Of a DNA stretch of 64,000 bases, positions 773-63,918 are shown piece by piece (position 1 is the stretch's first letter; every line of letters begins with the position of its first letter). Both the position numbers and the translations under genes were made by a program. The DNA lies in contig NMRA01000277.1 of assembly GCA_002633005.1 (NCBI GenBank), forward strand, positions 429,152 to 493,151. Reading direction: 5' to 3'. The DNA is from Phoronis australis. Its lineage: Eukaryota; Animalia; Phoronida. The notes under the pieces are model-generated. The model saw only the letters and a program-made list of their open reading frames with translations, was not told where the DNA came from and searched no databases.

Positions 773-1425
773 TACAGGTGACTAGGTAACTCTGTCCAAT
801 CAGCTGTGATTCGCAGTAGAACCTTGTACTGTCAGGTTTCATCTGGGCTAATTTCGATAGAGGCAAGAATATGTCAAAGGAAACGAGCGTGATCACGAGC
901 TTAATTGCTTGTAGTATCTCGCACGACCATGCATTTTTGCCTAGTCCCGTGTTTACGGTACCCACACCTGGTAACCGTCTGGTAGCTGTGTACTCAGTTA
1001 TTGAACTGCATTTTTATATAAAGATCTGATCAGAAGATTCATTTCAACCTGACAACTATACATGAGCTCTACACATGTAGATTTGGTCGTGTTTATTTTA
1101 GAATTACCTGGTTATTGGATTTAGAGCATAGGGTATGTGGAACCCCACACTTTTTTTTGTTTTATGAACTCAATTGTGGGTGTATGTTGATAGATTTCTT
1201 GCATGTTTTTCTTGGTGAACGTCACCAGCCTTGGTGTTCAAGAATCTGCTGCCCCAGCACCGAGTAACTATTTGAAATTTGTTACCGCTACCGGTCACAT
1301 AAATTTTGGTTTTGCGTTGTTATCAAAAAAATTCCACACTACATGTATATTCTATCCCCAAAACGCAGAAACAGAGTCTCATGATTACTGGGTTACATTT
1401 CATTGGCGCTTACGTTTCCACATAG

Positions 1426-1579
1426 GTTATCGCGACACTCCCGACGGCTCGTTGGTTACGTTCTGGCAGAGGGGATCGTGCCAGTGCAATAGTTTAAGAC
1501 CGTTGTTCGAAGTGGGAAAGAAGTACTTGGTCGCGGGCCCGGAAGGAATGCACTTTTCGGACATCACAAACGCTCACAG
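1426..1579 (+). CDS. Internal exon of C345C/NTR-domain protein
   Basis: catag acceptor, gtaaga donor, phase 1-2; GYRDTPDGSLVTFWQRGSCQCNSLRPLFEVGKKYLVAGPEG matches the NTR module pattern F-x-x-R-x-x-C-x-C...G-x-x-YL-x-x-G. Confidence 0.85.
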
Positions 1580-2371
1580 GTAAGAAACAGTTGTGAACAA
1601 CAAAGGTCATTGTTGACCAATGGATCGTGAGATTGGAAGTCGTTCGGTTGCAGGAGCCGAATCGCTATTCCCTGCCACCAGATGGAAAGAACGAAGGACA
1701 TCCGGAAGTCTCTACTTAAGCATGCGCGATTGCGCTTTCCATGAAAAGAGCAGCGATAAGTCTCGAAACACTGAAGGGAATCAAACCTGGCACCAGCTAG
1801 TCTATACGTAATTAGCAGTAACAAAGTCGATTCCTAAGTTTCCATGATTTCGAGTTTGTTTTTTTTTTTTTTCTTTTAAAACTTCAGTCCACTCGTAGCG
1901 CAGACTCAAGTATTTAAGCGAACGTAACTGTTAGAGTCACCAGCTTTCATAAAAACAGCAGATGTTATTGCTTTAAAGCTCTGGTCAATGAAAGCTCATA
2001 ACTTCAGGAAATCGTCCCTATCAAACAATGAATTTATAGACGCGATTTCCTGTCGTAAAAACGGCGATGTTTCTATAAGTTTGTGGTGGTACTACATTTG
2101 TGGTAGCACTACATTGTAATACTTACAAGAGAAAGTTGGTTCCACAGGCATTACTTTTCCAAAGACTTCCAGAATTCAAAGGGAGCATCCCCTGGCGTAT
2201 CTAATATGTTACAAGGGCGCCCAACATCAATTTTCTGCTCGACTTAGTTGGTTATTTCTGGAATGATGGAGCCGGGAAACTGGGTCTCCGAAGCTCCCTA
2301 ACATCCACCTGGATAGCCCTAGTTGTTTTCGAAAATACAGATTCATGAAAAATCTTTTTATTTTCCATTAG

Positions 2372-4809: not shown

Positions 4810-6719
4810 CACAGTTGGCAGAATTTACTCAGCGAGTTCACGTGATATCGAGCTGTTTTGCTTAAGACTGTTGCTGCTCATGCATGTACGTGGGCCAACT
4901 TCTTTTGAAGACCTTAGAAAAGTTGGAAATGTTACTTCTGCTTCATTCAAAGAAGCCTGCTTCAGTTATGAAACACCTTTTGACGGACCAAACAGAGTGG
5001 GACAATGGTCTAGCAGAAGCCAGTGAATTTCAAATGCCAGCTCAACTTCGAGTGCTCTTCGCAACAATATGTATATATTGCGAGCCATGTGATCCCATGG
5101 CACTTTGGGAGAGGTACAAACTTCTCATGTCAGAAGACTTCGTTACACGCCCAAACGTCAGTAAGCGGCAAGATTCCTGCAACATGCCGTTGCAGCATAT
5201 TACATCCATCTTGCAAAAAAACGGCATGACTGCTTCCCAGCTGGGACTTTCTGAACCGCAAGAAATTTTGAATGTTAATGATGTATTTGACACAGCTACT
5301 GAACTTCAACATGCAACAACACACTGCTGAATATTGAGCATTGTCTGTTGGTGGACAACATTGTCAAACTGGATCTGCACTCTCGGCCGAATCCAGATGA
5401 GAAAACTGCATACTTCCTTGATGGTCCAGGCGGCAGTGGCAAACAATGGTCTACAATACCCTCATTTCGCATTGCAGAAGCCAAGGAATAAATGTTGTCT
5501 CATGTGCTTGGACTGGGATAGCTGCAACACTATTGAAAGGAGGCAGAACAGTACACAACCTATTCAAGTTGCATGTGCCTATCCTTGATACCAGTTCTTG
5601 CAATGTGTCATCCACGTAGCCTACGTCCCAACATGCAGAGTACCTAAGGTCTGCGCAGCTGTTAATAATAGATGAAGCGTCAACGGTGCCAGACGAGGCT
5701 GCGAGCCATTGACAAAATGATAGCGCACGACATCACTGCCGACAACGCCATCTTTGGTGGTAAAGTAATTTTGTTGGGTGGTGACTTTCGGCAAGTTCTG
5801 CCAGTTGTACCCCGTTCTTCAAGAACTGTGATTATGGAAAACTGCCTGAAAAGCAGCCAATTGTGGAAGCATTTCAAGTTCATGCACTTAACGAAGAACA
5901 TGCGTGCAGAAAAAGATCAGCAAGAGTATGCAACATGGCTTTTGAAGTTGAGCAATAGCGACCTTTGCACATCATGCCCTGAAATATATGCCACTTGACA
6001 GAGTTGACCTTCCCGATCAATGCTAAGTTGTCGGACATGGTGAAGAAGTCTTTAGAAATCTTGGAGATCCAGAGAGCATCATTTTAGCCTCCACAAATGA
6101 TACCACTTTTCAGATAAACAATTAAGTACTGGCAGAGTCACCTAGCTGGAGAGTCAACTGTTTACCTGAGCTCAGAGAGAGCCATCTGCGATGATGAGGA
6201 AGAGGCACACAATTATCCAGCGGAATTTTTAAATTCATTCACTCCTTCTGGCATGCCCCCTCATAGTTTTACAGCTCAAACCTGGTGCTATCATCATGCT
6301 ACTGAGAAATATTAACATTCGGGAAGGTCTCTGCAATGGAACTCGCCTATCTGTATGCCGACTCCACAATAGCACCATAGACGCCAAAGTAATTACTGGA
6401 GCTGGACTGGCCAACGAGTTCTAATACCAAGAATAAAACTGGCACCATCAGACAGTACGTGCTTTGCCCTTCATCCGAAGAACGCATCCAGTTTCGTGTC
6501 CGGTCTCGCATACTCCATCACCATCAATAAGGCTCAAGGTCAAACATTGAATTTAGGCATCTTTTTCCAGCCCCAGTATTTGCTCACTATGGTCACGTGG
6601 CATTCTCTAGAGCAAAGTCCCTAAAGAATGTCACTGTACATATTTGTTGACCATGTGGGGCAAGGAAAGGTGAACGGCAAAATTGTAACCAAAACATTGT
6701 GTACACAGAAGTTTTATAA
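4810..6719 (+). mobile_element. Decayed Helitron Rep/Hel, PIF1-family helicase region (multiple frameshifts and stops)
   Basis: Ordered motifs across frames: LRLLL..HVRGPTSFEDLR, FLDGPGGSGK, WTGIAATLLKGGRT, IIDEAS, FGGKVILLGGDFRQVLPVV, LTKNMRA, YPAEFLNSFTPSGMPPH, IMLLRNI..EGLCNGTRL, ITINKAQGQTL, VAFSR, terminal IVYTEVL-stop; no introns. Confidence 0.93.
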
Positions 6720-7709
6720 TCTTTACAATTTTTTCACAAAATCTGTCCTTAGTACTATAATGTCACAGTGGTGTGTGATATGGTCTCCATAGTCTCATGT
6801 TCTTCATTGGTGAGAATTGCTTGCAGGTCTTGGCCTAATTAACAGTCTTTGGTTTGCACTTTTATGATCACGACTGTTTTAACGTTTTCCAGATGTTCCA
6901 CCGTTAATGAGTGTTTTTATTACTGCGCATGCTCATATGTCGCGTGAGAGTTAGTTGCCGAATTATAGAGTCGATATCGTTAAAGTAAAAGAAGGGCGTC
7001 AGTTGTTATTATTTTGTTATCGTGTTTCATCGTAAATCGTTTTTAAAAATAAGAATTTAGTTGAGCATCATCGGCACAATTAGACTTGTGTAATACCCTG
7101 AATTTTTTGTGTACAAATGCTTCTTAAAACAGATTTTGTATTTGTATTTGTATAAGCTCTCTATATTTTGGTAATGATTACAAAATGGTTTTTTATTAGG
7201 TCAGTCTTGACCCAGTCATCCTTAGTTTGTACAATTATTATAGACTTTTGTAAATACTCTGAAACTGTTTTGTGTGCAGAACAGTATTTTAATACTTACT
7301 TAAGTTTTCAATTCAAGAATATCTGATTATCGTACATTATATTATGACAGGGTCAAAAGTTTTGGAAAAAAGTACTTGTACTGCCTTGGGAAAGCATCCC
7401 GCAGCCGCACACCCTGTCTAAATCTGAAAGAAATTCTGAATCCTTGAAATAAAACGGTCTCTTCAAGAAATTTTCCTTTTTTCTTGCGACGAACACTAAT
7501 GTTCACTTGGAGGTAGCTGTTTCCCGCCGGCATTTTTCACATACACTAGCTTTTACCCGTGCTTTGGCTGTATATAGTTGGTTTTAAAAGCATCCCGTTA
7601 CCTTCACCAATCAGCCATACGGGTCTTGACTCCGTGTGCAGACAACACTGTTGCGCTCCATAAATGACAACTTCTACGCAGAATACAGGGATACCTTTTA
7701 CGCTTCGTA

Positions 7710-7795
7710 GGGCAGAAAAGATGCCCACAAAAATTGTCTTTTCTCTAATAAATGAGCTTACTTAGAATCAGCAAGAATTAGTCATCGCGGAAATT
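7710..7795 (-). ncRNA. Novel Sm-class snRNA-like gene, copy 1
   Basis: Predicted RNA AAUUUCCGCG...AAUUUUUG-UGGGCA-UCUUUUC-UGCCC; PSE-like TTACCTGTATAACGTAATATTT at about 7831-7852 and distal AGATGGCGCTG at 8025-8035; TATA degenerate. Confidence 0.65.
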
Positions 7796-8414
7796 CCACA
7801 CCATGAGTCAACACAGAACTAATGAACTGAAAATATTACGTTATACAGGTAACTATAATTTTCCGTATTTAAAACATTTTAAGACTTTTACTTCCGACAA
7901 ATTTTCGGTAATTTGGTTTACTTATAATAACTGACAATTAGCTGTGTCACATTGGTTGTGTCTAGTTCTACTGCGCGTGAAACCGTTGGTTTTTATGAAC
8001 CCAGTCTGTAGAAACTTTTGCAAACAGCGCCATCTTTTGCCTAATTCACAAACTGGCTATAACAATGTACTGTAGCTTCTTACCAGCACTTGAATGTCTA
8101 CACGTTTCCCTTTTACTAGCGCTTTACTGACGGTCTTTGATTTTTTGTGATTCAGTTCACCACGGGAGCAGTTTAGCATGTTAAATTTTACAAAATTGAA
8201 TGCTATCTGGACTAATCGGTTTGCACCGGCAACAGTTGCACCCGACCAACGTATACTCCCAAGGCACTTTGAGTAGGCCACATCGATCACTAGCCCAAAA
8301 GCCAGGTAAACATATTTGAAGAACTGCCATAATTGCCTCTAATATTGTAATTTTATTTGACTAGGTCCAAATAATCCAAATGCGGTCAAACTGAACAAGC
8401 GATATAGACCCAAT

Positions 8415-8688
8415 GGGGCTATTCGGAGAATTCTCCTCGCGGTGTCGCTGCTGTACTAGTGGTGATTAAATTGCGCATGCGTGGCTGTCTGCATGTAAAC
8501 AACTGGTAAAAGATGGAATTGTTATCAAAATACGTCGTCGCGCTAAGCCTTATTACTGCTAATTTCCTTGGTGCAAGTCTTCGACAGATGGCCACAAATT
8601 CCCAAAAGACCTAAGGTTACTATATTCGTGTGCAATTGTGGTCAACAGGGTCAACTAACTGACAAAAAGTGTGTGGATGCTGAAGCCC
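8415..8688 (+). mobile_element. 5' end of a THAP-bearing DNA transposon (possibly ISL2EU-like), truncated at the N
   Basis: Present after caat in duplication copy 1 but absent from copy 2; decayed THAP-like peptide YC*FPWCKSSTDGHKFPKD at about 8561-8610. Confidence 0.5.
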
Positions 8689-8689
8689 N

Positions 8690-8999
8690 GGTCCGACGTC
8701 GGTAAACAATCGCTTGCAGGGTGGCGGGACGTTGATAAGTGGTCGGAATTGAATTGGCGCGACGTCGGTAAAGGGTCGTATTTCCGCCGTCGGGCCCAGG
8801 TCGTACCGTCGTCGGTTATTAGTCGGCAGTCGGACCAACGTCGGGTCATCGGCGGCCCGACTGCGACGTTCTTACGACGTTGTTACAACGTTCATCCGAT
8901 GGACAAAATCACGTTGGTCCGACGTCAGACACCAACGTTGGCCCGACGTAACGTGAGTCGTCGGACCGACGTTGGACCACCGACAGCATGCTATCTGGG
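8690..8999. mobile_element. GC-rich MITE right arm with CCGACGTCGG-type subterminal repeats
   Basis: Many ccgacgt/acgtcgg repeats ending gctatctggg, inserted at an AT that is unoccupied in duplication copy 1 (6653). Confidence 0.7.
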
Positions 9000-10040
9000 A
9001 TGTGGGGCAAGGAAAGGTGAACGGTAAAACTGCAACCAAAACATTGTGTACAAAGAAGTTTTACAATCTTTACAATTTTTTCACAAAATCTGTCCTTAGT
9101 ACTATAATGTCACAGTGGTGTGTGATATGGTCTCATAGTCTCATGCTCTTCATTGGTGAGAATTTCTTGCAGGTCTTGGCCTAATTAACAGCCTTTGGTT
9201 TGCACTTTTATGATCACGACTGTTTTAACGTTTTGCAGATGTTCCACCGTTAATGAGTGTTTTTACTACTGCGCATGCTCATATGTCGCGTGAGAGTTAG
9301 TTGCCGAATTATAGAGTCGATATCGTTAAAGTAAAAGAAGGGCGTCAGTTGTTATTATTTTGTTATGGCGTGTTTCATCGTAAATCGTTTTTAAAAATAA
9401 GAATTTAGTTGAGCATCATCGGCACAATTAGACTTGTGTAATACCCTGAATTTTTTGTGTACAAATGCTTCTTAAAACAGATTTTGTATTTGTATAAGCT
9501 CTCTATATTTTGGTAATGATTACAAAATGGTTTTTTTATTAGGTCAGTCTTGACCCAGTCATCCGTAGTTTGTACAATTATTCTAGACTTTTTTAAATAC
9601 TCTGAAACTGTTTTGTGTGCAGAACAGTATTTTAATACTTGCTTAAGTTTTCAATTCAAGAATATCTGATTATCGTACATTATATTATGACAGGGTCAAA
9701 AGTTTTGGAAAAAAGTACTTGTACTGCCTTGGGAAAGCATCCCGCAGCCGCACACCCTGTCTAAATTTGAAAGCAATTCTGAATCCTTGAAATAAAACGG
9801 TCTCTTCAAGAAATTTTCCTTTTTTCTTGAGACGAACACTAATGTTCACTTGGAGGTAGCTGTTTCCCGCCGGCATTTTTCACATACACTAGCTTTTACC
9901 CGTGCTTTGGCTGTATATAGTTGGTTTTAAAAGCATCCCGTTACCTTCACCAATCAGCCATACGGGTCTTGACTCCGTGTGCAGACAACACTAAATGGCA
10001 ACTTCTACGCAGAATACAGGGATACCTTTTACGCTTCGCA

Positions 10041-10126
10041 GGGCAGAAAAGTTGCCCACAAAAATTTTCTTTTCTCTAATAAATGAGCTTACTTAGAATC
10101 AGCAAGAATTAGTCATCGCGGAAATT
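10041..10126 (-). ncRNA. Novel Sm-class snRNA-like gene, copy 2 (probable allele of copy 1)
   Basis: Two substitutions relative to copy 1 within the RNA (one in the 3' hairpin loop, one just 5' of the Sm-like site); same promoter spacing (60 and 239 bp). Confidence 0.6.
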
Positions 10127-12351
10127 CCACACCATCAGTCAACACAGAACTAATGAACTGAAAATATTACGTTATACAGGTAACTATAATTTTCCGTATT
10201 TAAAACATTTTAAGACTTTTACTTCCAACAAATTTTCGGTAATTTGGTTTGCTTATAATAAGTGACATCTAGCTGTGGCACATTGGTTGTGTCTAGTTCT
10301 ACTGCGCGTGAAACCTTTGGTTTTTATGAACCCAGTCTGTAGAAACTTTTGCAAACAGCGCCATCTTTTGCCTAATTCACAAACTGGCTATAACAATGTA
10401 CTGTAGCTTCTTACCAGCACTTGAATGTCTACGTTTCCCTTTTACTAGCGCTTTACTGACGGTCTTTGATTTTTTGTGATTCAGTTCACCACGGGAGCAG
10501 TTTAGCATGTTAAATTTTACAAAATTGAATGCTATCTGGACTAATCGGTTTGCACCGGCAACAGTTGCACCCGACCCAACGTATACTCCCAAGGCACTTT
10601 GAGTAGGCCACATCGATCACTAGCCCAAAAACCAGGTAAACACACTTGAAGAACTGCCCTAATTGCCTCTAATATTGTAATTTTATTTGACTAGGTCCAA
10701 ATAATCCAAATGCGGTCAAACTGAACAAGCGATATAGACCCAATTCACGCGGCGGACATTAAAATCCAAAGTGAGGCTCACTGCGATAAACAAAGCGGAA
10801 GTTGACATTGCATGAGTTAAATAGCCGGTCTTTCGATTCCAACCTGGATATTGAATTTCAATAATGTGTCGACAATTAACCACAGAGACGTAGAAATTAC
10901 ATCAGAGAACAAAAAGTTAAGGCGTCAAAGAGGTCTGACGAAAGGGTTTAATTTTTTCGGAAAACTATGTTCGAAACATGAAAAGTAAATATAACCAAAT
11001 TGCGACGATCGTAGTGTTACGGATTATGCTGATTGCAGGGTTACGTTTTTCTTGTAAATTGTTGATCAAAATACTTTCTACGCGAACCAGGTCATCTGCT
11101 CGTATTGTTGACGAGTTGAAGACATATTCTACAGTGGTGGCTGTCATGTGCAATTAATTTGATGATCAAGAATGTTAACATCAAGCATAGCCTGATCCTA
11201 TGCACTCACTGGGACTAACAGTTGACTTGCCATTGATCTGAAAGAATAATTGATGTTATTAAATATATTTTTATGAAAATAAAAAACCAGGCTCGTAATT
11301 GAAAAGAAAAATTATTTGACCATCAATTCTGCTTTCTTGGCTTATAATTCTTACGTCTATTTCATGTGTTAGGTTTCAAATATCAATCTGGACCAAGTTG
11401 AATTTTAAAATTAAAACACCTAATTTGTTCGTCCAAAGCATAACCTCGTTTAAGAACTCAATTTCAGTTAACTGGACAAATCAATCATAGTTATCATGTT
11501 TCTCCAGGAGCCTCTTTCATCCGAGGGGAAAGGTGCCAGTGCCTACTGAGAGGCGATTTTTTCGCCGGCAAGTGAGGGCGGGAACAATCACCTCCCGATC
11601 ACCATCAATAGCACCCCTGCCCTGTTGCAAGCTCTTTTATTAGGCTCTGTCTCAATTTAAAGTAGCCTTTTATGCTCTGTGGTTACAGGTGATGTGAACT
11701 CAGAGAGATTTTTCACTGGGGGAATTTTTATGCCATTCATGCTCGATGGGGGGATTTCGCGTGATATTTCAATACTTTTGAGAGGGGAATAGGGCCGATA
11801 TTGGGCCCCAAATTCGAGGGATTGAGAGCCTTGTCCTTTTTGGAAAGAAAAATTATAATGTTTCAACCCGTAATCATGAAAACACAGCCTGGCTGTATTC
11901 TCCGGTCGTTACTATTATGCTTGGCAACCGAGATGCGACAAAATATTATCTCGAAAACATTTACAAATTTTACACCGGCGGACATATTTTGCTTCGTCGC
12001 GGCGTATGGAAACGACCCAACGCTTCCGAATCTCAATGTCTTTAGGGATTGTAAAGCAGACAGTTGAGTATCCGTATTTTTTCTAGCCGTTCGCGGAGCA
12101 ACGCGAACTGAAATACACAACTATCGGATAAGCTAACAGAGCTATCGTAGTGAACCTCATTTTGGAACGCGTCTCCTGTCGGCGTGAATTGGGCCTATAG
12201 ACTGCCGCCTGATACTAGTAACACTTAATACACTACACGCGTAATATTGTAAAACTTTTACTGCCGCCAATTCCTATGTCGTAATGAGAATGTTTTCACT
12301 GTTAAACCTAAAACAAATACATGTACTAGTAGCAGAAAGATTGTATCTGCT

Positions 12352-12447
12352 GAGGGTTAGTGGTTTATAGCGGGGTTAGGTTTAGAGTTAGGGAAAGATT
12401 TAGGGTCAGGGTTTGGGTTAGGGTTAGTGTTAGGGCAACAGTTAGGC
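12352..12447 (+). repeat. Degenerate (TTAGGG)n-like interstitial repeat; paralogous tract at about 16904-16983
   Basis: gggttag/ttaggg units preceded in both places by the same tactag..agcaga..gattgta..tctg.tgagggtt flank. Confidence 0.75.
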
Positions 12448-13535
12448 AAATGCGACTTCAGGCTGACACATGTGTTTTAGTGGGAAAATTGAAAATTTAT
12501 CGCTTAGTGGTACAGTACCTGTGTACAACTTTGTGACCAAATTAGCATCGGCATGCACTTGCCCATTGCTTATGACAAACAGTCAAAAATGAAGAACCTT
12601 CTTGTTTTTGCCACAAGACAAACACTGCATTGGAATTTTAGGATGACGCTGAGAAAATTTAGTGTTGAATTTCTCATCAAAAGTAAACCTCGAAACAAAT
12701 GCGCATCCCTACCACCGCTGTACAACTGTCATCAAGTAACGCACTTTACCGCTGTAGTTCAGCTTCTTGAAAAATAGAGTCTTGATTTTGAGGGTTAACT
12801 GGAAGAATAAACATGTTTCCAGTCTACGCTAAAAGGGGTAAATCCCAATCAGGGTCCTCATTCGGTGCCGGCGGCCATTTTGGTGAAAATTGAAGGATGC
12901 CATACATGTATAACTGCTGGTGGGTTATTTTTAAGCACCACCATTCCTGGTTTGTAATCTACTGTAAAATATTTTTCACAAGAACCACTGAATAAAATGT
13001 TATGGCCTGATACATCACAGTTGTATAAAAGGGAACGTACAATACAACTTGTGGTCACAGCCCGCTTCTATCATGAAAAAACTCATAAGGTAGCTGTCAA
13101 TTAAATAACTTCTTGATCAAATTGATGAAGTATCTCAACTAAAGTAAGAAAAAAAATAATATTACTGTTTTTTCTAGATGATGATGCATTACATATCTCA
13201 AACACATTGTAATGAGCCCTTTTTCTCTTGCAATACGATTCTTACAAAAACAGAAAGTCAAGTACTGTAAATATATTTTCAAAAACTGTATTGGCGATTT
13301 TGTTACTGCAATTCCTGAAACTATGCAAGAGCTAGTGCATAAGTTGGGTACGCGAATCACCAGCACACAACTATATCCTCTTAAAAGAGACAGAGTCGAC
13401 GCAATATTTTTAAAAAACAAATATTACAATGATACTACACCTTTTCGGATGCAACATTTTAATACTCATTTCTTCACCGGGGACTGCGTCTATTTTGCCA
13501 AATAAAACTTTTGCATTTAAATCTACGCATGAAAT

Positions 13536-13616
13536 GGCAGAAAAATTGCCCCAGAAATTTTCATAATCGTTTGATTTAGTAATTACCCAAAATGCTATAA
13601 AGGAATCGCGGAAATT
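13536..13616 (-). ncRNA. Novel Sm-class snRNA-like gene, copy 3
   Basis: AAUUUCCGCG...AAUC-AAAC-GAUU stem, AAUUUCUGG Sm-like site, GGCA-AUUUUUC-UGCC hairpin; PSE-like TCACCTGTGTAGTGTAATATTT; distal element degenerate with an adjacent TACATGTA insertion. Confidence 0.65.
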
Positions 13617-14601
13617 GCATTACGTAGAACCGACACAGTATTTATTGTTCCAAATATTACACTACACAGGTGAAGCTTAAATCTTGCTGTCGGTAACATT
13701 TTAAAACTTTCATTGCAACCAATTCTTATGTCGTAAGAATTTGCCCATTCCTAGCAAGACCTCGGTTTGGAGAATTGGCTATGTGTACCGATCAATGCGC
13801 GTGGAAGTGTTTGTTCTTTTAAACCCAGTCCGTGGTCATTCAGTGTTGCGAACAATGCTATACATGTAATTTACCGCGTAGACTGGCTGAACGATAAATA
13901 GCTTTCACCAACACTTTGCTCGTAGCAAAACATGCGAATGGTTAATTCAAGCGTCGCTTTTACTAGCGCCATTTTGCTGGCAGTTGTTGGTTTTTACGAC
14001 TCTGTTAACTATAAGGGCAATTTAGCACGGATTTTGAAATTTTACAAAATTGAATATTATTAGGATTAATCAGTGTGCTCCGACAACAGTTGCAACCATA
14101 CGTTGTACAGTATGTTCTCACTGGTCGAAAGCTTAAATCAAACTTAAGATCACTTTCTTGGAACGGACTTATGACAAATTGAAGTTTTATCTTAAAATTG
14201 AATTAAAATAAAGTCTTCTCTTAACTAAGTCAGTCTTCTTGGAACGGGCCTCAGAATTAAAAAATTCAGTAGCCAAATAGGGGAATAAACGTGGGTATGG
14301 GTGACCCACTAGGCGGTCTCAATTGGCCAATTTGGAGGACGTTGCAGTCATGTTGTTCTTTCTTTCTCGTTTCTCATTTTGTTGTGGTTTTCGGCCCGAG
14401 TTGAGCAATCGCAGTGTATCAACGAAATTATTTTGCGCCAATTACGCGGGGTGTGGTTCTAAATTACTCCTACAAATTGGTCGCAGAATTAGTTTATTTA
14501 TCTCCCGTTACCTTAGTCAATCGCTGGTATACTACACGGGTTGGCTCTATTCATGATAACCCTCACGCATAGGAGGAGAACACCTTTTCATTGGCTTTGA
14601 A

Positions 14602-14668
14602 GGGCAGCTTTGCCCGATAAAAATTTTTTTAATCTTCAGATTAAGCAAGTACATAGATCGCGGAAATT
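14602..14668 (-). ncRNA. Novel Sm-class snRNA-like gene, copy 4
   Basis: AAUUUCCGCG, UUAAUC-UGAA-GAUUAA stem, AAUUUUUA, GGGCA-AAGC-UGCCC; PSE-like TTGCCTGTGTAACGTAATTTTT; distal AGGTGGCGCTG at 14898-14908. Confidence 0.65.
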
Positions 14669-15487
14669 AAAGATCTAGAGCCGACACAATATTAATAAAC
14701 TAAAAAAATTACGTTACACAGGCAACTTTATTTCTTCGTGATTAAAACATTTCAAACTTAAAACTCCATCAAGTCTTCCACCGTTTGAGTTGAACAATAT
14801 GTTTTGACATCAAAATATGGCAAATTATTTGTGTCCAGTTCTACTGCACGTGAAATCGTTTGCTTTTACTAACCCAATATGTAGTAACCTTTACAAACAG
14901 CGCCACCTTTTATCTTGTTCACAAACTGGCTATATTGATTTTCCAGAACTTGAACGGTCACAAGTGTCCCTTTTACTGTTTGCATTGCTGGGGTTTTCTG
15001 TAATTCAATTAACCACGGGGGCAGTTAAACATTTGAAATTTTACAAAAGTGAATGTGAGTTGGTTTAATTGGTGTACTCCGACAACAGTTTGCACCAATT
15101 GTATACTCCTGCGAAATTAGGCAGGCCAGATCGACCAGCCCAGCCAGATAAATTCTTGAAGAGCTAACGCCACGTTAAATAGTCTGCCTAATTATTAATT
15201 TTTATTTCGAATATTACAATTTCATTTGACTGGGTCCAAAATGTCCATTAATGACCCCGTACTGAACAGGCGATAAGGACCACCAACTGTGTATTTTGAA
15301 TACATAAGGAAATCGCTGAACAAGTCTCCATCGATTGCAATGCGACGCCACTTTATACTCGCCTCAGTCATGCTTGCAAGCACGAGACATTTATCGTTAT
15401 TTAGAACAGGACGGTTCTTTGTCATGAGCATTCGTTACACTACGGCTGGTTTGTCGTAGGTCTTTTGCACTTCATTCTACTCTTTAA

Positions 15488-15570
15488 GGGCAGCAAATGT
15501 GCCCCAAAAAATTTCTTAATCAGTTTGATTAAGTAATTACCCATAATGCTGTAGAAGATACGCGGAAATT
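15488..15570 (-). ncRNA. Novel Sm-class snRNA-like gene, copy 5
   Basis: AAUUUCCGCG, perfect CUUAAUCA-AAC-UGAUUAAG stem, AAUUUUUUGG Sm site, GGGCA..UGCCC hairpin; TATATAAA at -30, PSE-like TTACCTGTATAG, distal AGAGGGCGCTG. Confidence 0.75.
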
Positions 15571-15813
15571 GTTTGACGAAGAACGCGGACAATTTATATA
15601 ATATTTAATTGTAATACTATACAGGTAATCTTTACTTATTTGTGTTGACAATAATTTAAATCTTATATTGTAGCCAGATTTCATGTTTTAAGATTTTCTT
15701 AGTATTTACTACACTCTTACTTAAGGGGAATTAACTGTGCTTTATTTAATGCGCGTAAAGTTGTGTGTTCTTTGAATCCCGTCCGTGGTCATTGTTACAA
15801 ACAGCGCCCTCTT
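15571..15813 (-). promoter_or_regulatory. snRNA-type promoter of copy 5 (TATA-like, PSE-like, distal element)
   Basis: Minus-strand TATATAAA 15600-15593, TTACCTG 15628-15622, AGAGGGCGCTG 15812-15802. Confidence 0.65.
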
Positions 15814-16426
15814 TTACCGCGTACACAAACTGGCTGAAACGATAAGCTTTCACCATCACTCAGTCGCTCGTAGCAAAACATGTGAACGGTTACAAACGTC
15901 ATTTTTACCAGCGTTTTGCTGACAATCTTCGATTTTTGCAACTCAATTAAAATTTAATTACCATTTGAAATTTTACGAAATTGAATGTTATTTGAATTAA
16001 TCAGTGCGCTCCGACAACAGTTGCACCTATTGTATGCTCTCAGGGCTTTGAGTAGACGTGCCTGAGTGATCGACCAGGCCTGTAGCCAGGTAATAATATT
16101 TGAAGAGATAACACGACGTTAATCTGACTAATTTTTAAAATCGTTTTTGATATTGACAGGGTCCAAAACGTTCAAATGACGTCATACCAAAAGGTGATAT
16201 GGATGGCTGATTGTGTATCTGTTGAATGCGCAAGGTACAGTGTAATCACTGAACTTCAGCACAAGTCGCATCAAACACGTTCATGATTGAACTGAACAGA
16301 CACGATACTTAAAACTTATAACACTACATGTATACACACGTAATTGTAAAACTTTTAATGCCACCAATTCCAATGTCGCATTGAGAAGTTTCCCATTTAG
16401 CATGGGCGCACGCGGGGGTGAGCTCG

Positions 16427-16579
16427 CAGGGGCGGATCCAGGATTTTGAGTTAGGGGGGCCAGGTTGAGTATTATCCAGAATTTTGCCCGTCAGACATTC
16501 GCACCCCAAAGCTGCCAAATGGAATTTGGGAGAATTTTAGGGGGACCATGACCCCTTGCCCCCTCTAAATCCGCCACTG
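16427..16579. mobile_element. Short hAT-like MITE (CAGGGGCGGAT...ATCCGCCACTG); relatives near 20025-20190, 23020-23165, 24923-26268 and 50150-50298
   Basis: Terminal inverted repeats and shared internal sequence among dispersed copies. Confidence 0.65.
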
Positions 16580-17816
16580 GCACAGGGGGGCTCGAAGGAG
16601 CCTCCCCGAATTTGACGAATTGGGCAAACGGCCGGGTCCGTCTCAGTGAAACAAAAACTGAGTCCGGTTAAACGAGACAAAAGTCCACAAAATCCAGGGG
16701 ACTGAAATCGGTGCGGATGCACAATTCGTGAGCCTGAACCTAGTGGCTAGTTAGGTTTTTTTTTTAATCCTCGTTGATTTCTTTCAGTAAAAGCTCCGCA
16801 TACCGAACGATTCGATCCCCCCTATACTGTAGTCTTAGACTGGGTGCGCGCATGTTTACTAGCGACACAGTACTAGCAGAAGCCGATTGTACATGTATCT
16901 GTTGAGGGTTGGTGGGTTATACATTTCCAAATCTTCTACACGTAGGGTTGCAGGGTAGGGTTAGAGTTGGGGTAAGAGTTAGCCTACCCGACTAGAACGG
17001 TTCTTTGTCTTAGCACAAATACTGGAAAGCTTGGTGTCGCATTAGGGTTTATATGAAAGTGACCGACAAATACACAAATGTGCGGTCTGAAAATACTGAA
17101 ATTCAGATACTACCACATGGGCGACGCACCATAGGAGGCTGGGGGGGCTACAGCCCTCCCCACTTTTTCAGTGCTGCGGGCGCCGCCCATGGTCTACTGG
17201 CGGTGCACCCGCGGGCCACAGGGGGGCTCGGAGGGACATTCGTCCCACTTCTTCCACAGTGCGCCGCCCATTTACGAAGCCTGCATGAATTAGGGGTCAC
17301 GGACATTTTTGTATATTATACTTTCAAGGGCATGCAGTCTTGTACATCCCCAAGTTATTATTTTCAGTTTCCTCTTGCGAGCAGCCAGTATAACTTTTCA
17401 CAATGAAACGTACCTCCACTGAATCAGTTCCCGTGTTACCATTGGCCGAGTTTTGGTGTTGCCGTTTTTGCTTACATTGGTGATGAACCTATCACGTGTT
17501 ATCAAAATTATTCGGGAAAGGTTCTCTTTGAAGCACAATCTGCAGTAGAAAATGTAGTCAAAGACGGCTCATTCCGCATCAAGAAATTCTCATTTTGCTC
17601 CCCAGAAGACCACCCTAGTATCTCCAAATTCACCAAACTTTGTGGTGTCATACTTTACAAAAATTCTCTCATCCCTAATGTGATTCATAAGACTGAACAT
17701 ACATGTAGCTCTGATACTAACTCCCAACTTGCCAGTTGTTGACTACTGTGGTCGTTGTAACCGTGGACTAACACTTAACTTACGGAGGCGCACAACATTC
17801 CTAGAACTTTAAATTG

Positions 17817-17902
17817 AGGCACGTAATTCCGTGCCCTATAAAAATTCATAAAGTTCAAAAAGTTATTAACTCTGCAAGGCGATAGCCTTTGCCGCGGAAA
17901 TT
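17817..17902 (-). ncRNA. Novel Sm-class snRNA-like gene, copy 6
   Basis: AAUUUCCGCG, GCAAAGGC-UAUC-GCCUUGC and AGAGUU..AACUUU stems, AAUUUUUA, GGGCACG-GAAUUA-CGUGCCU; TATAAA at -25, ACACCTGCACGG PSE-like, TAGGTGGCGCTG distal element at 18133-18144. Confidence 0.72.
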
Positions 17903-18847
17903 AAAGCTCACGCGAGAGACGTTTATACATAATAAATTGTTTGTTATTCCGTGCAGGTGTTATACCATTCTACTCTATCTGAGATTGAAACACTAGAATT
18001 TGAGAAATTTGTGACACAGTCAGATACAAAATTGAACACCACGTTTCGAGATTTAATGGATTGACAGTGCACGGTTTTACTTAGTCACAAAATTGGTTAA
18101 CTTTTACTCGACCTTGGCCATATTATTGTTCACAGCGCCACCTAGCATGAATCACAGCAACACTGAAGCCCGATCGAGTTTCTGATTCGGTGAATGCGTT
18201 CAAACAAAGCATTCAAATGTGATTGTTGCTCTTTAGCAGTCTAATTACTATATTTTGCAACTTTTTGTTTCTCATTATTGCAGTAAAAATCGAACATATT
18301 TTGAACTCCTACTTGAAAGTCTCTCACTACTCGGATGGTGCTACATTTGTAGCCTGAACGTAGGCAGTGTGTCTGCAAGATGTTGGTTACTTTGAAAGCA
18401 TCTATCGTGTTGAGAACTTTGTATTTCTTCTTTGTTGCTCTCTGGCATCTACCTATACGTACGTCGAATTAGAGGTCAGGATATTGCGACTTTTAACGGC
18501 ATTATATAGTCGAAGAAGGCAGAGCAAGAATGGAATGTTAACGTATGTACGTGGTGCTCCTGCCCTCGGATTCCGAAATCCGACGCAAAGATTGCTCCTC
18601 AACTTTGACAGCAGAGTAAACGTTACTACGTCAACTTTCGGAACACCTGTTAATAATTTAGCTTACTCAAGAGTGTACTTTTTAATGACACTAGTTTTGT
18701 GTCAGACTTTAGGTGACATTTTTACTCAAATAGGCGCGGCAAACCTGTAAGTCAACCTCGTACCAAGACAGGGAGAAGGGGTGACTCGTGAACATGCACC
18801 GTTAATTATTGACGTGCGTGACATGCACTGCACTGAATTAAAAACCC

Positions 18848-18925
18848 GGCAGCAAAACTGCCTCCCAAAAATATCGAAAAAAAGACTTAATAATACTTAA
18901 TAATTATTGCCTAAACGCGGAAATT
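18848..18925 (-). ncRNA. Novel Sm-class snRNA-like gene, copy 7
   Basis: AAUUUCCGCG...AUAUUUUUGG, GGCAG-UUUUG-CUGCC; TATATATT at -30, TTACCTGCATGGTGTAATATT PSE-like, AGGTGTCGCTG distal element. Confidence 0.72.
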
Positions 18926-20462
18926 GTGAATGTAATCACCTGGCGTTAATATATAAAGCTTTTAATATTACACCATGCAGGTAAATTCATTCTTTCGTCT
19001 TTCTAGGATTAAAAAAAATAAAAATGGTGAACTTCATAAAGCTATTAGTACAAACATTAAAGCGGTGTTTTATACAAGCGTAGAATTGACGGTGTCTTGT
19101 GGTAATATGTGTGAAAGTCTATATTGTTTACCAAGCATCTAGTTATCGTTTGCAAGCAGCGACACCTATAGTCAGCAAAGAAAATGAGTGGCAAGCGACG
19201 AGCTTTTTCCGAATTGTAATACGAGAAAGGGGAATGATCTAAAATGAACAAAACGGAACTATAGATCAGTCTATCAACCTACACCATATACATGAATACA
19301 TAGGCAATCGTCTGAAAAGAAAGCTCACAATGATTATACAACTTTGTCGGCATATTATTTGTTGTGTAGCCTAGGAACACATGCATGACATCGTGTTTGT
19401 GTTTAATTTTGAGTCAACATGAGGTGTTTGCAAATGTAAAAGTTCTCAGTAAGGCCCTTCGCACTTCCCAACTTCTTGCGACGAGAGGAGGCCATCTCAA
19501 TAAAAAGTCAAATTGGATGTTTTCAAAACTCTTCGAAATGGTCAAAATTCTGATCAAATTCACTGTTTGATGTAGATCATCACCAAAAGAATGAATTTCT
19601 ATATGCCCAAAACGCTGGGAAATGCTTACTAGACAACACGGTCCGCCTACAAGGGTAACGTGCATTTTGAGAACCAGGGTTTTCCAATACATGTACAGTG
19701 TACATGTAACAGGAGTCAAACTGGTTCGTAAAATGCGGAATGCCTTTGAGAGACCCAACTTCTATCATGCAAATAAATTCATAGAGGTACACTGTAGCAC
19801 TTAATTACTTGACTGAATTGAAGAAGTATGACACCAAGAAAATTTATTAGCGCACGGTGATCAAGTTGTTCCAGAGGGCATACGTGTCAACCAATACGGG
19901 AACTATACGCAATGTTAAACGGTTGTCCGTCACCAGTTGGTCAAAGTAGTTGATCGTTAATTATTTCAGTAACACGTACTGGAGGACTACACACAAGTGT
20001 TCTGTGAAATTGGGGAAATGAATTCAGTAGCGGATTTAGAGGAAGGCAATAGTACCATAACCCACGCCCCCCTAGAATTCTCACAGATTCTATTTGGCAG
20101 TTCGGGGGTGCGAATATCTGAGGCCGGACAAAATCCTGGCTAAAACTTTTCGCTGGCCATCCTAACGCAAAATTCCGGATCCGCCCTGGAATTCAACTGC
20201 CCTCGTGGTGTTCTCAACAGTATTATGACGGTTCTCTTTTGTTCTCGTTCTCTGGGGCCATGTAGGGAGGACCATATACGAAAACCGCGATTTCACTTCA
20301 AAGTTATTCCGCATAAGATAATATTGAATATCAGGTCACCACTTAGATTTCCATGAAAACATATCAGGCTCGGCGGTACCCAATCGATGGATCTGCGGGG
20401 AACTCAAAAATTAATGTCCTCTGTAAACGAAAACCTAACATTACCTGTATGGCAGAGAAGCG

Positions 20463-20525
20463 GGCAGTCAAACTGCCTTCAAAAAATGAACTGAAATGTA
20501 ATATTACGCATTTAACGCGGAAATT
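20463..20525 (-). ncRNA. Novel Sm-class snRNA-like gene, copy 8
   Basis: AAUUUCCGCG, AAAUG..CAUUU stem, AUUUUUUGA Sm site, GGCAG-UUUGA-CUGCC hairpin. Confidence 0.72.
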
Positions 20526-20767
20526 ACTCTTATGTGTGGATGTCGTTTATATATCAGCTAAAAATATTATTCTGTACAGGTGATTAAAGACAAAGGTTAT
20601 TATAACATTTTGAAACTCTTAAAAAGATTTTTTGTTAGGTTTTGGGGACTAAAATTGCAGCTGTTAGGATCCACGTGAATAGGATTGACTGTATCTGGTT
20701 TTACTACGCGTGAAAGTCTTAATTTTTTAAGCGGTGTTAGGTCGTCGTTTGCAAGCAGCGCCACCTA
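20526..20767 (-). promoter_or_regulatory. snRNA-type promoter of copy 8
   Basis: Minus-strand TATATAAA 20553-20546 (-28), TCACCTGTACAGAATAATATTT from 20583 (-58), TTTCACGCG near 20710, AGGTGGCGCTGCTTGCAAAC 20766-20747. Confidence 0.7.
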
Positions 20768-21199
20768 TCAATTGAGCAGAAAAGTGCGCAGCAAGCGACG
20801 AGCCGTTTTGTAATTGACTTATCGCAAGCTCCGCCCCCTTGCGTGATGTCGACCAACAAACAATAAGTTTTCTCCGGCAACGTGTTGTTTGTTGGGTAAA
20901 ATGGCGGTTTGGAAACGAAGCTGTGTCAATAATGCTGCGTTCTAAATGGTCAGTTTAGCGTCACTCAAAATCCTGGCGATAGGTCAATTGCTATCGAGAC
21001 AGATTCAACTTACAACCATTGAAAAGTCGATGTGGCTGTCATTAGAATTCAGTTTTCTGTTTATGCAAAGCACACTGATATACGCACACCGCACGACTCT
21101 CGACGTTGTCGATTTATGTTAGATATATTTGATTTATTCCTGCACCAGTTGCAGGTGCTCAGACCGTAGTTACAAACTTCATGTACGGTACCTCGCACA

Positions 21200-23782: not shown

Positions 23783-24172
23783 ACAGTGCTACGAAAGGTA
23801 GCTCATTATGGCTTCTTATTGGTTAAAGTAATGATACAGACGTCATTACACTCAATCATTCCCATTGGTTGAAATCTGGGAAACCCCTTTCAGTTTACTG
23901 TATTGTAATATGCCGGTGACAGGCTTTGACTTGGATAGTTGCAATTGATTAAAACGGTCAGTAATCGAAGTAAACAAAATCATGAAGGAAACCCCGATCC
24001 AGTGGCTTAAGCAAAAACCAGTACACCGCATAGAAGGTATGTGAACTGGTGGCGATGTGATTGGTACAAACTTCCGGCCAAGTATGCGCACTGATGCCAA
24101 AATATGGATTTCCATAGGTCGACCATCATGTTTCTACAGGGGCACTTTTCAATATAGGTGGCGCTGTGTCAG
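23783..24172 (+). repeat. Dispersed repeat with a homologous copy at about 43860-44133
   Basis: Shared agtgctacgaaaggtag, atcgaagtaaa, ggtggcgatgtgattggta and cacttttca...taggtggc.ctgtgtcaga blocks. Confidence 0.75.
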
Positions 24173-26190: not shown

Positions 26191-26731
26191 ACTGCCAACT
26201 GGTATCTGGGAGTATTTAGGGGGTGCATGGCCCCTTGCCTCCCCCCCCTCCCCCTAAATCCGCCACTGAGTTGGAACAATGGGTACAGTACACTGTACAT
26301 CATGTCAGGTGTGGTTGTCTGACAAGGGGCAAGGAGGATTCAGACCCATTAAGTTGACCTCAGGTTACCTGGTTTGCTTTTTGAAAAGTGGACAACAAAA
26401 ATATAAAATGCCGCACAGTTTTGTCTATGAGAGCATCAAATTTCAAAAAGTAACACAGACCAAAAGCAATTGTGCTATCACTGCATTATTGGAGCGCGGC
26501 TTCAAAATCTCTGGTGAGCTTCACCTATCCTTGTATTTGCAGAACATTCCGATTACCTCGTAACAGTCGCACTCGCACTGACAGGGCCGCCGGGTCAGAA
26601 TAGAATGGTTGATGCACTTGTCGTTTAAAGAATTGGGCACTGTGGAAGTGCAAGACCAGTTCACATGCAGTTGGTATAACCAAACGAGAATAAGAACAAA
26701 AACTCACGTCGTACACTGAACCAACGGCTTA

Positions 26732-27698
26732 ATGAGCTCACCCCAGCTGTCAGAGAGGCGGCGGTCGTCGGGTGTGTGCAAGACTGTCTGCCGCACATTG
26801 CACACAGATAAGATTCAACGAGAAGTCATCACCACCGTGGTGCAAGTATCTAACAAAAATAAGCAAACTGACAGCGGTACTCCCAACGCCTTACGGCATG
26901 GAAACGTAGCCCTGAAGAAGCCACCTGCTGTGAAGGCCGTCAAGCGGGAGAAGAAAATCTCGAGTACATACGGGTTGTTCACTCAGGACGTGGGCAGCAG
27001 TCTCATCGCGTCCGGTGCCATAATGTCGTTGCACGCGCTCGATCAAATTATGGGGAAAATTTCGAGAGACTTGTGCAAGGGAAATACTCAAGCTCCACAA
27101 CAAGCCCCTCTTCATATACGTTTCCCAAAGCTTCCGAATAGGAAAAGACAGGGAGGAGACATGCATACAGCTTTGAGAGCCGAGAGGAGAAGAGAGCGGA
27201 AAAGGCAATCCAATTTTGTGAGGGATAACCGAGAATTCATGTTTCCAAAAACGTCTGTTAGTAATAAACGGCCGTCTCCTCCAAGAGAAACTTATCTTGT
27301 GTACCCAAGGAAACAGCGGCGTAGGGAGCTACCCCCAGGGACTGTCTTGATTACCGGAACTTCGTCAAGTAAACATCAACGTGAGACACGTTGCTTCCCA
27401 GATTTAACACCTCCTGAGCCTCAATCGCCGAAAATTGGCCCACGAAGTCCTGATTCGTGGTGGAATAAGTACGAGTCAACGTTAACGACACCGTCAGAAG
27501 GTGGAAATTCAATGGTCGTCGGTTCGATGCATACGATGGCGACCAGCTTGCTTGAGGAGAACCTCGTGTTACCCGCCAGTCCAATCGACCACCGGAGGGC
27601 CTCCATGTCTTACATGGAGACGTACTGGGAGAGAAAGCGACGCAGTTCGAGAGCGGTGCCCAGCCGACAGGTGACATTTGGCGCATCGCTTTATTCAC
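26732..27698 (+). CDS. Large Ser/Pro/Arg-rich coding exon, probably the first exon of the TOG-domain gene
   Basis: About 1 kb open frame with raised GC in an AT-rich background; donor candidates gtgaca at 27671 and gtgagt at 27699; no recognisable domain; connection to the 31949 exon not resolved. Confidence 0.55.
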
Positions 27699-29100
27699 GT
27701 GAGTATACATGTACATTGTATTGTTACTTCAAATGGCCAAGACCCAAAACTAACAACATCTTTGTTAATTCGTGGCTTATAATCGCCTGTTAAAGCGAAG
27801 TGGCTTTATCGTCGTTTTTTGACACCTGCAGATAAGCGGAATAGTTCCCTTAATCTCAGCAATCTCAATGCAACGCTCTAAATGGCGGAACAACGGGCAT
27901 TTGCTAAATAATAGAGTAGTTATGGCATCGTCCTTTATTTTAGCAAAGGGCTGGCAGGCAACGGCTAGAGTTAGCGATGTGTAATAGAATAGAACACAGT
28001 CGGCATTGCATTATAGCTCTGTTCAAAGCTAATTCATCCAAGAAGTGTATCCCATCCACCACTCTCAGAATAACATGTTAGTTTTCCGTACAACCGACAA
28101 GCTTTATTTCACATTTGGCAAAATGTCGCTGCTCAAATTCTTGTGACGTGGCTAACAAAGAAACACAGCTATTTTGACGAAGACAATTAGACATGTTCAA
28201 CATATAATGGCGGTAATAATTCAAATAATATTGGGTCAGCAGTTTTTAAACGAAGAAACTGGGACCAGCAGTACAGTACTTGACACAGTTATACATCGTA
28301 AAATTATCTAAAAATGTATTGAATGAAAACGGCTGCGTTTTAAAGTGGTTGTGCATTCTGTGAAGGGAATCAGGGATGCAAAACTGAGCAGCGAAGGGAA
28401 ATAGAACTGTTTCATGAGAATCATGTGCGCATGTCTTGGCACGCCGCCGCAGCCGTAGTGAAGAATTTTTGTGTCAAATGCATAGTCGTCTACAATACTC
28501 AAGACGATTTTAACCCGGACCAAGTACATGTAGTCCAACAGGCGCGTGCCAGTTCCACAGGGGTGGATTACAGTCATTACTTGCCACGTGAGGAATAGAC
28601 TGTTGAAATGTCTGTTCCACAGCCGTTGAACAAATGATTAAGGAGAGTGCCCCTCCGGACATTGTTCAACCTGTGTTCATGTGCTTATAGTGGAAGTGCG
28701 ACTGGAGAAACTGGACAGGCTCTACTGCAAAGAGAAAAACCCGGAGATCATTAAATTGTTTGACGTGGGAAAAGAAATGATCGGCTGGGCAGACCCAAGA
28801 CTACCCGACATTGAATTGTGCCACTGTCCGGAGTCATATGATAAAGGTACGGCTAAACCAGAGCCTGTGGGTGGTTTATTGTGGTTCCTCGAAAACATTA
28901 CGCTTTTTTAAGATATCATTTTGTCTTTATGTTAAGCAACTTTAAAGCGTTTTCGTGAAAATCAAAAAAGTCCTGGCCCTCCTCGTGCAAATGGAGAACA
29001 CTGGCAGGGGTGATCAGGTACAGTACTCAACCGGAAGTACATGTATCTCTCAAAGGAAGCTAGCGTGATCACGTGCATTCACGTAGTTTAGTGACACCTG

Positions 29101-33373: not shown

Positions 33374-34621
33374 AGGCGAAATCAACCTTTTTTCATGTCA
33401 TTTTTAGCAATAATAGGATTCGTTGATTATCCCAGAAATATTTTTCACTTATTTACAGATTTTCGTAAATTAATTAATTCTTTGTCGTCTACTCCGGAAG
33501 TGACGTTTTGGGAGGCAAGAATTTCGCGCCAATTTCTTTTCATACAGTCTGATTGTGAGAGCAGTCGAGTCAGTCATTGTTCTACCTCGGTTGTGATAAG
33601 TTCGAAGGTCGTTTGCTTTTGTTTACGAATCAGTCAACATGACACGCTGTTGCTGCCTACCGAGATGTACTCTTCATCGTTTCAAGTACAGAGGAAGAAC
33701 TGTCCCACTTGCCCGAGTGTCCCGCGACACACTCCCGATGATGACTTGAGTACCCAAACTGCTTACATCCCGCCGTGCGACTCCCTCGTCACACATGTGG
33801 CACCTTCTAAATAGCTCCAATACAAGTCCACAATAAACCTATCAAACTTAGGTTCACCGATCTGTTCACTGGGTGTCAAACTTGGCTTGTATTCACTCCC
33901 ACTACTCAACATTGCTGCAGGGCTGCTTACAGGCTCTGTCCTAGAGACAACAGCACACGGGGAATCACAGCTAGTTCCTGGAATTGCAGGCAATGGGGGT
34001 ACGTTCGGAGGCATGGGTGACAGTAGATAAAGTGCCTCCAGTCACTGTTTATAGTGGCTACAGCTCGCGAGGCTTCTCGCTTCAAAAACGCACTTCTCGG
34101 GGTTGGCGATGGGGCACTGCCGGGAATCAACAGCGACGGTATGGAACCCTTCTTCAGGCGTTGTTTCGCAGGGACCTTCATCAATTCAGCGTACATACAT
34201 GTATCTCTGTCGTAATCTGACGGCTGAAAATGCTTGACACTGCTTTGTACGGTGCATGAACGGGTAGCGCTGCGTTCTTCACACGAACGAGCTAGCCAAG
34301 TACGGCCAAGCGTGTCATCCTTCGGAAAGCGATGCAAGGTACCCAAAGCGTGTGTGAGACGATAATGAGTACTGTACATCCTGGTACGCAGCAACAGCGT
34401 GGCATGTTGACTGACTCGTAAACAAAAGCAAACGACGACCGAACTTATAACATCCGAGGTAGAACAATGACTGACTTGACAGCTCTCACCGTCTGACTGT
34501 ATGAAAAAAATTGGCGCGAAATTCTTGTCTCCCAAAACGTCACTTCCGGAGTGGAGGACGAGAAATTAATTAAATTATGAAAAGCTGTAATTAAATGAAA
34601 AATATGTCTGGGATAATCAAC
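33374..34621 (-). mobile_element. Non-autonomous Kolobok-like element with about 250-bp TIRs and a decayed THAP domain
   Basis: 33422-33670 is the reverse complement of 34374-34621; left end TTAA|AG; minus strand LHRFPKD...W...KHF.PSDY...RLKKGSIPSL is THAP-like. Confidence 0.75.
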
Positions 34622-58624: not shown

Positions 58625-58849
58625 CTGTTGATGGTGGAACGTCACAGTATTAATATTACTTTCCGACAGNAATCAATATATGTGAATTACTTCAAAATAA
58701 ACGTGACTGTCTGCAAAGAAAGTCAAATTCAATCACATGTACATGACATTCTATAACCAGGTTACACAATAATTTCTTTAGGGACCCCATCAATTGAGCA
58801 CAAAACATTATTTTCAAAATGCCAAAGCACAACATCCTACTTCACCCAC

Positions 58850-63902: not shown

Positions 63903-63918
63903 CTGCAAGTAACACAGT

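Follow-up and report, generated by a model that had tools for sequence, protein, structure and literature searches.

Eight clustered putative small nuclear RNA-type genes with an invariant ten-base start in a 64-kb stretch of Phoronis australis DNA

Background

The question raised by this locus is which kind of RNA would be made from eight short units that lie on the minus strand of a stretch of Phoronis australis DNA (contig NMRA01000277.1; the 64-kb stretch as a whole is here called the window) and that all open with the same ten bases, AATTTCCGCG. To our knowledge, the kinds of Sm-bound small RNA found in animals are few, namely the spliceosomal set, U7, the spliced leader (SL) RNAs and the SmY RNAs of nematodes. 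A first-pass annotation of the window had described the units as a paralogous family of Sm-class small nuclear RNAs (snRNAs), and potentially as a new small nuclear ribonucleoprotein (snRNP) system. In this study, we report that the units, judged from their sequence, are very probably snRNA-type genes, and that they lack tested features that define the spliceosomal snRNAs, SmY and U7, as well as one that defines the SL RNAs, and are therefore filed under none of these classes. The explanation that we tentatively prefer is an Sm-bound particle guided by the cap-proximal decamer. Seven long-diverged genes in which little has been retained apart from a promoter, the ten bases next to the cap and an Sm module point either to a further kind of Sm RNA or to an SL family that trans-splices from unusually loose donors, and either would matter to specialists in RNA processing. 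The evidence comes from a single cluster in a single assembly.

Architecture of the units

The eight units, with 5' ends at 7795, 10126, 13616, 14668, 15570, 17902, 18925 and 20525 (units 1 to 8; Table 1), were all found at the positions given in the first-pass annotation, and the identical ten-base start that it had reported was confirmed in every one of them. The order within a unit is the decamer, a middle of 28-51 nucleotides (nt), a U-rich tract and then a hairpin whose core is GGCA/TGCC. Nine exact copies of the decamer are present in the window, eight of them in the units and the ninth at 62354-62363; with up to one mismatch allowed, 13 matches were found against 3.17 expected, and shuffled versions of the window reached at least 13 in 0 of 100 cases. 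A covariance model built from the eight units recovered them at 50-82 bits, as it must by construction, and gave no further family member in the window above 14.9 bits.

Units 1 and 2 lie within one 2.33-kb duplication, and the cluster is therefore counted as seven independent genes. The decamer is invariant in all seven, the GGCA/TGCC stem and the U-tract are present in every unit, and alignment of the units on their start leaves no invariant position in either of the stretches -70 to -1 and +11 to +15. A tree built from each unit together with 300 nt upstream separated the units by branches of 0.26-0.91 changes per site. Unit 4 grouped with units 1 and 2, unit 3 paired with unit 5 (support 87/86), and units 6, 7 and 8 stood on long branches; five of the units share homology over 500-600 nt of upstream sequence.

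The Sm-type tract, which had been read as common to the family, has the strict form AU4-6G in five of the eight units; it departs from that form in unit 3 (AUUUCUG) and in units 4 and 6 (both AUUUUUA), and the fuller motif RAU4-6GR occurs in one unit. The tract is followed in all eight by a 3' stem-loop with a stem of 4-7 base pairs (bp). Two further claims, that this stem covaries and that the overall fold is under selection, found no support. The four core pairs are fixed in 8/8 units and no pair is changed on both sides; since the pairs are invariant, covariation lends the stem-loop no support, and a C-G/G-C swap in the inner stem, between unit 6 and units 7 and 8, was seen by eye only. The middles have no shared structure (fold z-scores from -1.8 to +1.3), and the consensus fold of the eight units consists of the 3' stem only. 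Evidence for selection on the sequence of the middles appears mixed, those of units 3 and 5 being 0.80 alike against 0.53-0.64 in their flanks, and those of units 1 and 4 being 0.54 alike against 0.68 in the upstream flank.

Promoter-like elements upstream of the units

A box resembling a proximal sequence element (PSE), YACCTGYRYRRNRTWAYW, stands before all eight units, with G in place of A in one of them, and its CCTG begins at -54 to -56 in every case. When a profile was made from seven units, the eight boxes, which scored 20.5-26.5 bits, were the eight best sites of the window, the ninth site reaching 13.8 bits; in leave-one-out profiles the box of every unit fell within the top 5-11 sites. 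Farther upstream there are two distal boxes, one at -236 to -243 in 8/8 units and the other at -187 to -191 in 7/8 by the pattern used; units 3-7 carry matching distal boxes at equal distances. The proximal box is presumably similar in sequence and position to the vertebrate PSE, and the box near -237 presumably to a CTCF core. Another box of the latter type, TAGGTGGCGCTG, stands without a unit at 24156-24170 on the plus strand.

Genes for snRNAs are laid out in this way, with one proximal and one distal element, each at a set distance (PMC5054213; PMC2655684). By this analogy, we infer that the box at about -55 may be the PSE of the host animal and that it would start RNA polymerase II at the decamer. 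Transcription by RNA polymerase III was considered and judged unlikely, because runs of T4-T7 stand inside units 3, 6 and 7 before the tract and because there is a conserved hairpin beyond the U-tract. The profile could be used to list the host's snRNA-type genes, including a U7 gene missed by homology search, as is the case in most invertebrates (PMC2655684).

Table 1 Coordinates of the units, their promoter-like boxes and the duplication
Feature	Position	Strand	Details
Unit 1, predicted RNA, 86 nt	7710..7795	-	decamer 7786-7795; GT 7761; Sm-like site 7728-7734; 3' hairpin
Unit 2, predicted RNA, 86 nt	10041..10126	-	recent duplicate of unit 1; GT 10092; Sm-like site 10059-10065
Unit 3, predicted RNA, 81 nt	13536..13616	-	GT 13586; variant tract AUUUCUG 13552-13558
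Unit 4, predicted RNA, 67 nt	14602..14668	-	GT 14652; tract AUUUUUA 14618-14624
Unit 5, predicted RNA, 83 nt	15488..15570	-	GT 15540; Sm-like site 15505-15512
Unit 6, predicted RNA, 86 nt	17817..17902	-	GT 17870; tract AUUUUUA 17839-17845; 7-bp 3' stem
Unit 7, predicted RNA, 78 nt	18848..18925	-	GT 18896; Sm-like site 18866-18872
Unit 8, predicted RNA, 63-64 nt	20462..20525	-	GT 20507; Sm-like site 20480-20487
PSE-like box, unit 1	7834..7852	-	25.4 bits
PSE-like box, unit 2	10165..10183	-	25.4 bits
PSE-like box, unit 3	13655..13673	-	26.5 bits
PSE-like box, unit 4	14707..14725	-	20.5 bits
PSE-like box, unit 5	15610..15628	-	23.2 bits
PSE-like box, unit 6	17942..17960	-	20.6 bits
PSE-like box, unit 7	18966..18984	-	25.7 bits
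PSE-like box, unit 8	20565..20583	-	25.1 bits
Distal boxes, unit 1	7970..8034	-	near -187 and -236
Distal boxes, unit 2	10301..10365	-	
Distal boxes, unit 8	20703..20765	-	near -190 and -237
2.33-kb duplication behind units 1 and 2	about 6653-8414 and 9000-10744		families D2, D3, D6, D9, D13, D14; 96-100% identity

Comparison with catalogued RNA families and copy number

Comparison of the window with Rfam gave 0 matches at the gathering score and none on any unit at E-values up to 10; seven weak matches were obtained at E up to 10, of which 0 overlapped a unit. Among these was a U7-like match at 15117-15172 on the minus strand (19.4 bits against 34, E 2.2), which was taken as chance because no PSE-like site stands before it among the 15 listed sites above 11 bits. 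The match sits in the homologous upstream flank, paralogous stretches of which lie near 8260-8340, 10590-10660 and 16040-16110.

Copy number was examined at unit 2, one of the eight, by mapping a DNA run (X1, possibly the window's own source) to 9560-10570 at 80% likeness. The RNA part of this unit was covered by one contig at depth 39, and a repeat 200-400 nt downstream of it gave summed depths of 190-2065. Twenty inverted repeats of at least 40 nt were listed for the window, and no unit is flanked by any of them. The possibility raised at first pass, that the units are dispersed transposon ends, thus met with no high-copy family at the unit tested and no listed flanking inverted repeat. The PSE-like and distal boxes, the blank Rfam result and the low copy number at that unit uphold and strengthen the earlier description of a paralogous, Sm-class family of snRNA type outside Rfam, its Sm-type tract being strict in part of the family.

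Relatives outside the cluster were sought in metagenome, prokaryote and viral collections, and none was found there. A pattern scan of 47/64 parts of the metagenome collection returned 119 loci, of which eight had CCTG upstream, four had a hairpin and 0 had both. The RNA model, run on 83/122 retrieved loci, gave one match (L007, 29.1 bits, pre-selected by pattern), which was rejected as a relative since it looks like a bacterial terminator hairpin. The promoter pattern combined with the decamer gave three bacterial matches, all lacking tract and hairpin, and 0 viral ones. Since animal DNA is scarce in these collections, the scans say nothing on related species. No published description of the family turned up in the open-licence literature, and of the 29 papers in which the decamer occurs, none of the 27 listed has a title on small nuclear or leader RNAs.

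Mapping of RNA-seq reads to the cluster

Three RNA-seq runs filed under the same species (X5-X7) were mapped, together with a contig set (X8), to 7400-21000 at 90% likeness, and the runs were also mapped to 9560-10570 at 80%; they contributed 35.1 million records, or 18-19% of each run. At 90%, depth was zero in the bins with unit 3, unit 5, the 5' part of unit 6 and unit 7; the bins with units 4 and 8 had depth that came at least partly from repeats. At 80%, 28, 24 and 3 reads of X5-X7 were mapped. These 55 reads fall on the downstream repeat, save for a few X6 reads at 10444-10511, and 0 of the 55 touch unit 2 at 10041-10126, a negative that is weak because library selection was unspecified and no expressed gene served as control. 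Pieces of about 34-38 nt were mapped near this unit, so that full 34-nt leaders would probably show and partial ones would not. The result is mild evidence against a major SL and is silent on the expression of short, non-polyadenylated RNA. Dispersed repeats lie between the units at 9646-9865, 10768-12150, 16426-16760 and 20814-20989, and nearly all mapped RNA-seq reads fall on them.

Proposed role of the units and alternative explanations

The snRNAs U1, U11 and U7 pair with their partners through a conserved 5' arm, while stability and nuclear import come from their Sm module. The decamer is read as a guide because the conserved 5' ends of those RNAs are base-pairing arms, and a guide particle was chosen as the explanation since the fixed parts of the units are the decamer at the start, the U-tract and the core of the stem, with length and sequence between them drifting. 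The units would make capped RNAs of 63-86 nt, begun by RNA polymerase II at the decamer under the PSE-like box. The U-tract and hairpin would assemble an Sm ring, and the middle would be a freely drifting spacer. In the most speculative step, the invariant cap-adjacent decamer would base-pair with target RNAs that hold its complement, and this pairing would bring the particle to a processing site. That such a particle forms a new class of animal Sm snRNP, neither spliceosomal nor SL, SmY or U7, in which the invariant 10-mer guides an undescribed step of RNA processing, is possible but doubtful; the step could be, for example, recognition of a non-canonical splice site or of a 3'-end signal, with the variable spacers tuning the particles. 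The new snRNP system proposed at first pass is plausible but not established, since an SL-RNA-like GT, overlooked in that annotation and described below, keeps a known class open.

Several observations weigh against the guide particle. The complement of the decamer, sought as a sense-strand target, is absent from the window beyond the listed decamer sites, and a GT at an SL-like distance in 8/8 units is left unexplained by the model. To these are added the three tracts that depart from strict AU4-6G, the absence of covariation in the stem, the low likeness of the middles of units 1 and 4, the blank scans for relatives and the lack of reads over unit 2. A cluster of the motif TTTCCGCG, which includes the ninth exact decamer (62354; 14.9 bits), lies at 62050-62456 in an intron of a mitoguardin gene without a PSE, tract or hairpin, and for this reason the decamer may be a DNA-level motif. 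Three candidate partners or likenesses of the decamer were tried and rejected. They were a conserved loop of 18S ribosomal RNA (rRNA), complementary at 9/10 positions, with about 0.2 such matches expected by chance over the rRNAs on our own estimate; a U1-like register reading GA donors, which agreed at 5/9 positions, the chance level; and a likeness to an internal segment of U5, dropped on finding the U5 loop absent upstream.

The GT has a place in a divergent family of SL RNAs, an explanation that we consider rather unlikely. Under it the first 16-34 nt would be donated at the GT, the decamer being the shared cap-proximal part of the leader, and the remainder, with the Sm site and the hairpin, would be the SL intron. 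In units 1 to 8 the Sm-like site is preceded, at distances of 27, 27, 28, 28, 28, 25, 24 and 20 nt, by the first GT past the decamer; it is the sole GT between decamer and Sm-like site in six of them (in three units a T also stands directly after the G that ends the decamer, and such GTs were not counted), and its G is predicted to be paired in 6/8. Shuffled middles gave a product of 0.0017 over seven units, for a 20-28 nt range chosen post hoc and for paralogs that are not independent. Spacing, size and Sm motif fit SL RNAs (PMC7986045; PMC12582326; PMC7346339), which consist of a leader, a donor and an Sm-bearing intron (PMC12582326), with a default donor-to-Sm distance of 20-60 nt (PMC7986045) and repertoires that can be diverse, as with 15 in Trichinella (PMC7668243). 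The units are thus like Trichinella SL1-15, Hydra SL-A to SL-G and the flatworm SL RNAs in size, clustered paralogs, a variable 5' part, the GT and the Sm-like site with its downstream hairpin, but at the units tested the mapping gave no leader. No read at 80% likeness carried that of unit 2 (34 nt), and the leader bins of units 3, 5, 6 and 7 were empty at 90%; partial leaders below about 30 nt would be missed at either setting, and the leaders of units 4 and 8 are too short to see by mapping. The donor context is also weak. The GT sites match 2-4 of the seven positions of the textbook donor consensus, none reads AG|GT, and as a set they are barely above random GTs (p 0.046), whereas coding exons of the window end at GTs that score 5-6 at best; the coding donors were taken as the best GT per 55-nt stretch, a choice that favours their scores, at five internal mitoguardin exon hits (one duplicated) and one NTR exon, with the last coding exon (4) excluded. 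Five different trinucleotides precede the GT (TAA, TGG, TAT, AGA, TGC), so that the leader 3' ends are unconserved, whereas the leader end and donor of flatworm SL RNAs form a conserved block (PMC12582326). Of the hairpins that stand on either side of the Sm motif in SL RNAs, the first of which holds the donor, the 3' one is present; the 5' folds vary by unit and do not rise above shuffles, and a shared first hairpin is absent.

The preferred guide particle has also to be set against the other Sm-class systems. Spliceosomal U1, U2, U4, U5, U11, U12 and U4atac are alike in a PSE-type promoter layout and in an Sm site followed by a 3' stem-loop; the units, in contrast, are half their length or less, lack their conserved internal domains and have no Rfam match. 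SmY-like Sm-bound scaffolds, in which the paralogs would be interchangeable and the decamer would be a protein-binding tag or a DNA-level initiator and not a guide, seem unlikely. The free drift of the middle suits a scaffold, and the resemblance of the decamer to an upstream TTTCACGCG box and to the 62-kb motif cluster suits a DNA-level role. Nematode SmY, with its SNA-3/SUT-1 partners, likewise is a small multi-gene family with an Sm site, a 3' stem-loop and one conserved 5' motif, divergent elsewhere; PMC11229312 describes twelve small Sm-binding RNAs, mostly interchangeable, whose one conserved 5' motif is needed for protein binding. That motif is a stem-loop, however, and the family is there described as nematode-specific (PMC11229312), whereas in the units the conserved part is a linear cap-proximal decamer without a shared fold, an Rfam match is absent, and the host does not appear nematode-like, no nematode being among the named rows of the 120 listed relatives of the mitoguardin gene. 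A divergent U7 cluster for the 3' processing of histone mRNA is highly improbable. U7 RNAs measure 57-70 nt, are sometimes clustered and escape homology search outside four clades (PMC5054213; PMC2655684), and they have the layout of the units, with a 5' guide, an Sm site, a 3' hairpin, a PSE and a distal sequence element (PMC5054213), the likeness extending to the conserved 5' stretch and to clusters in some animals. Their Sm motif RUUUNUCYNG (PMC5054213) nevertheless occurs in 0/8 units and the UCUUU box, which in U7 pairs with the histone downstream element, in 1/8, the Rfam U7 model matched no unit, the U-tract of the units is of the canonical type, and the unit paralogs are far more divergent. 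It is very unlikely, too, that the units are duplicates without function, or that they are a transposon end or a short interspersed nuclear element (SINE) end with an snRNA-derived promoter. The region is rich in dispersed repeats, the homology of the upstream flanks of five units extends over 500-600 nt, and no expression was seen in RNA-seq at the units examined; on the other side stand islands of invariance at fixed spacing within otherwise saturated sequence, the single contig over the RNA part of unit 2 against the far deeper neighbouring repeat, and the confinement of all copies to one cluster and one strand with no listed inverted repeat beside them.

Other genes and repeats in the window

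A multi-exon mitoguardin gene (Miga, PF10265) occupies 57797-63896 on the minus strand and runs off the end of the window. One of its exons is present twice (58454-58630 and 58850-59026) within a 396-bp tandem duplicate whose junction holds an N, and this may be an artefact of assembly. Among 120 listed relatives of the gene, those named are from crustaceans, molluscs, insects and amphioxus, with top values of 84-91% over a single exon. A single-frame PI-PLC-X gene (PF00388) lies at 42721-43569 on the minus strand, with similar-looking fragments near 49608-49995 on the plus strand; its best relatives are at 57%, followed by caecilian, gar and hemichordate proteins and, below these, many bacterial ones. 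The relatives of these two genes fit an invertebrate-like animal host. The exon at 1194-1580 (plus strand) has a weak NTR/C345C match (PF01759) and a strong donor at its end, and a 357-codon open frame at 26720-27793 (plus strand) gave neither a Pfam family nor a usable Atlas hit.

Adjoining the cluster, broken PIF1-like helicase frames at 4866-6600 on the plus strand, with PF05970 at 5672-5995, are likely a Helitron remnant. An element at 33422-34621 has a THAP-domain frame between inverted arms of about 250 nt that are 88-89% complementary. The assembly has a gap from 50484 onward, filled with about 440 N, and tandem arrays of 79, 37 and 20 nt are located at 55579-55975, 61425-61612 and 63918-64000, respectively.

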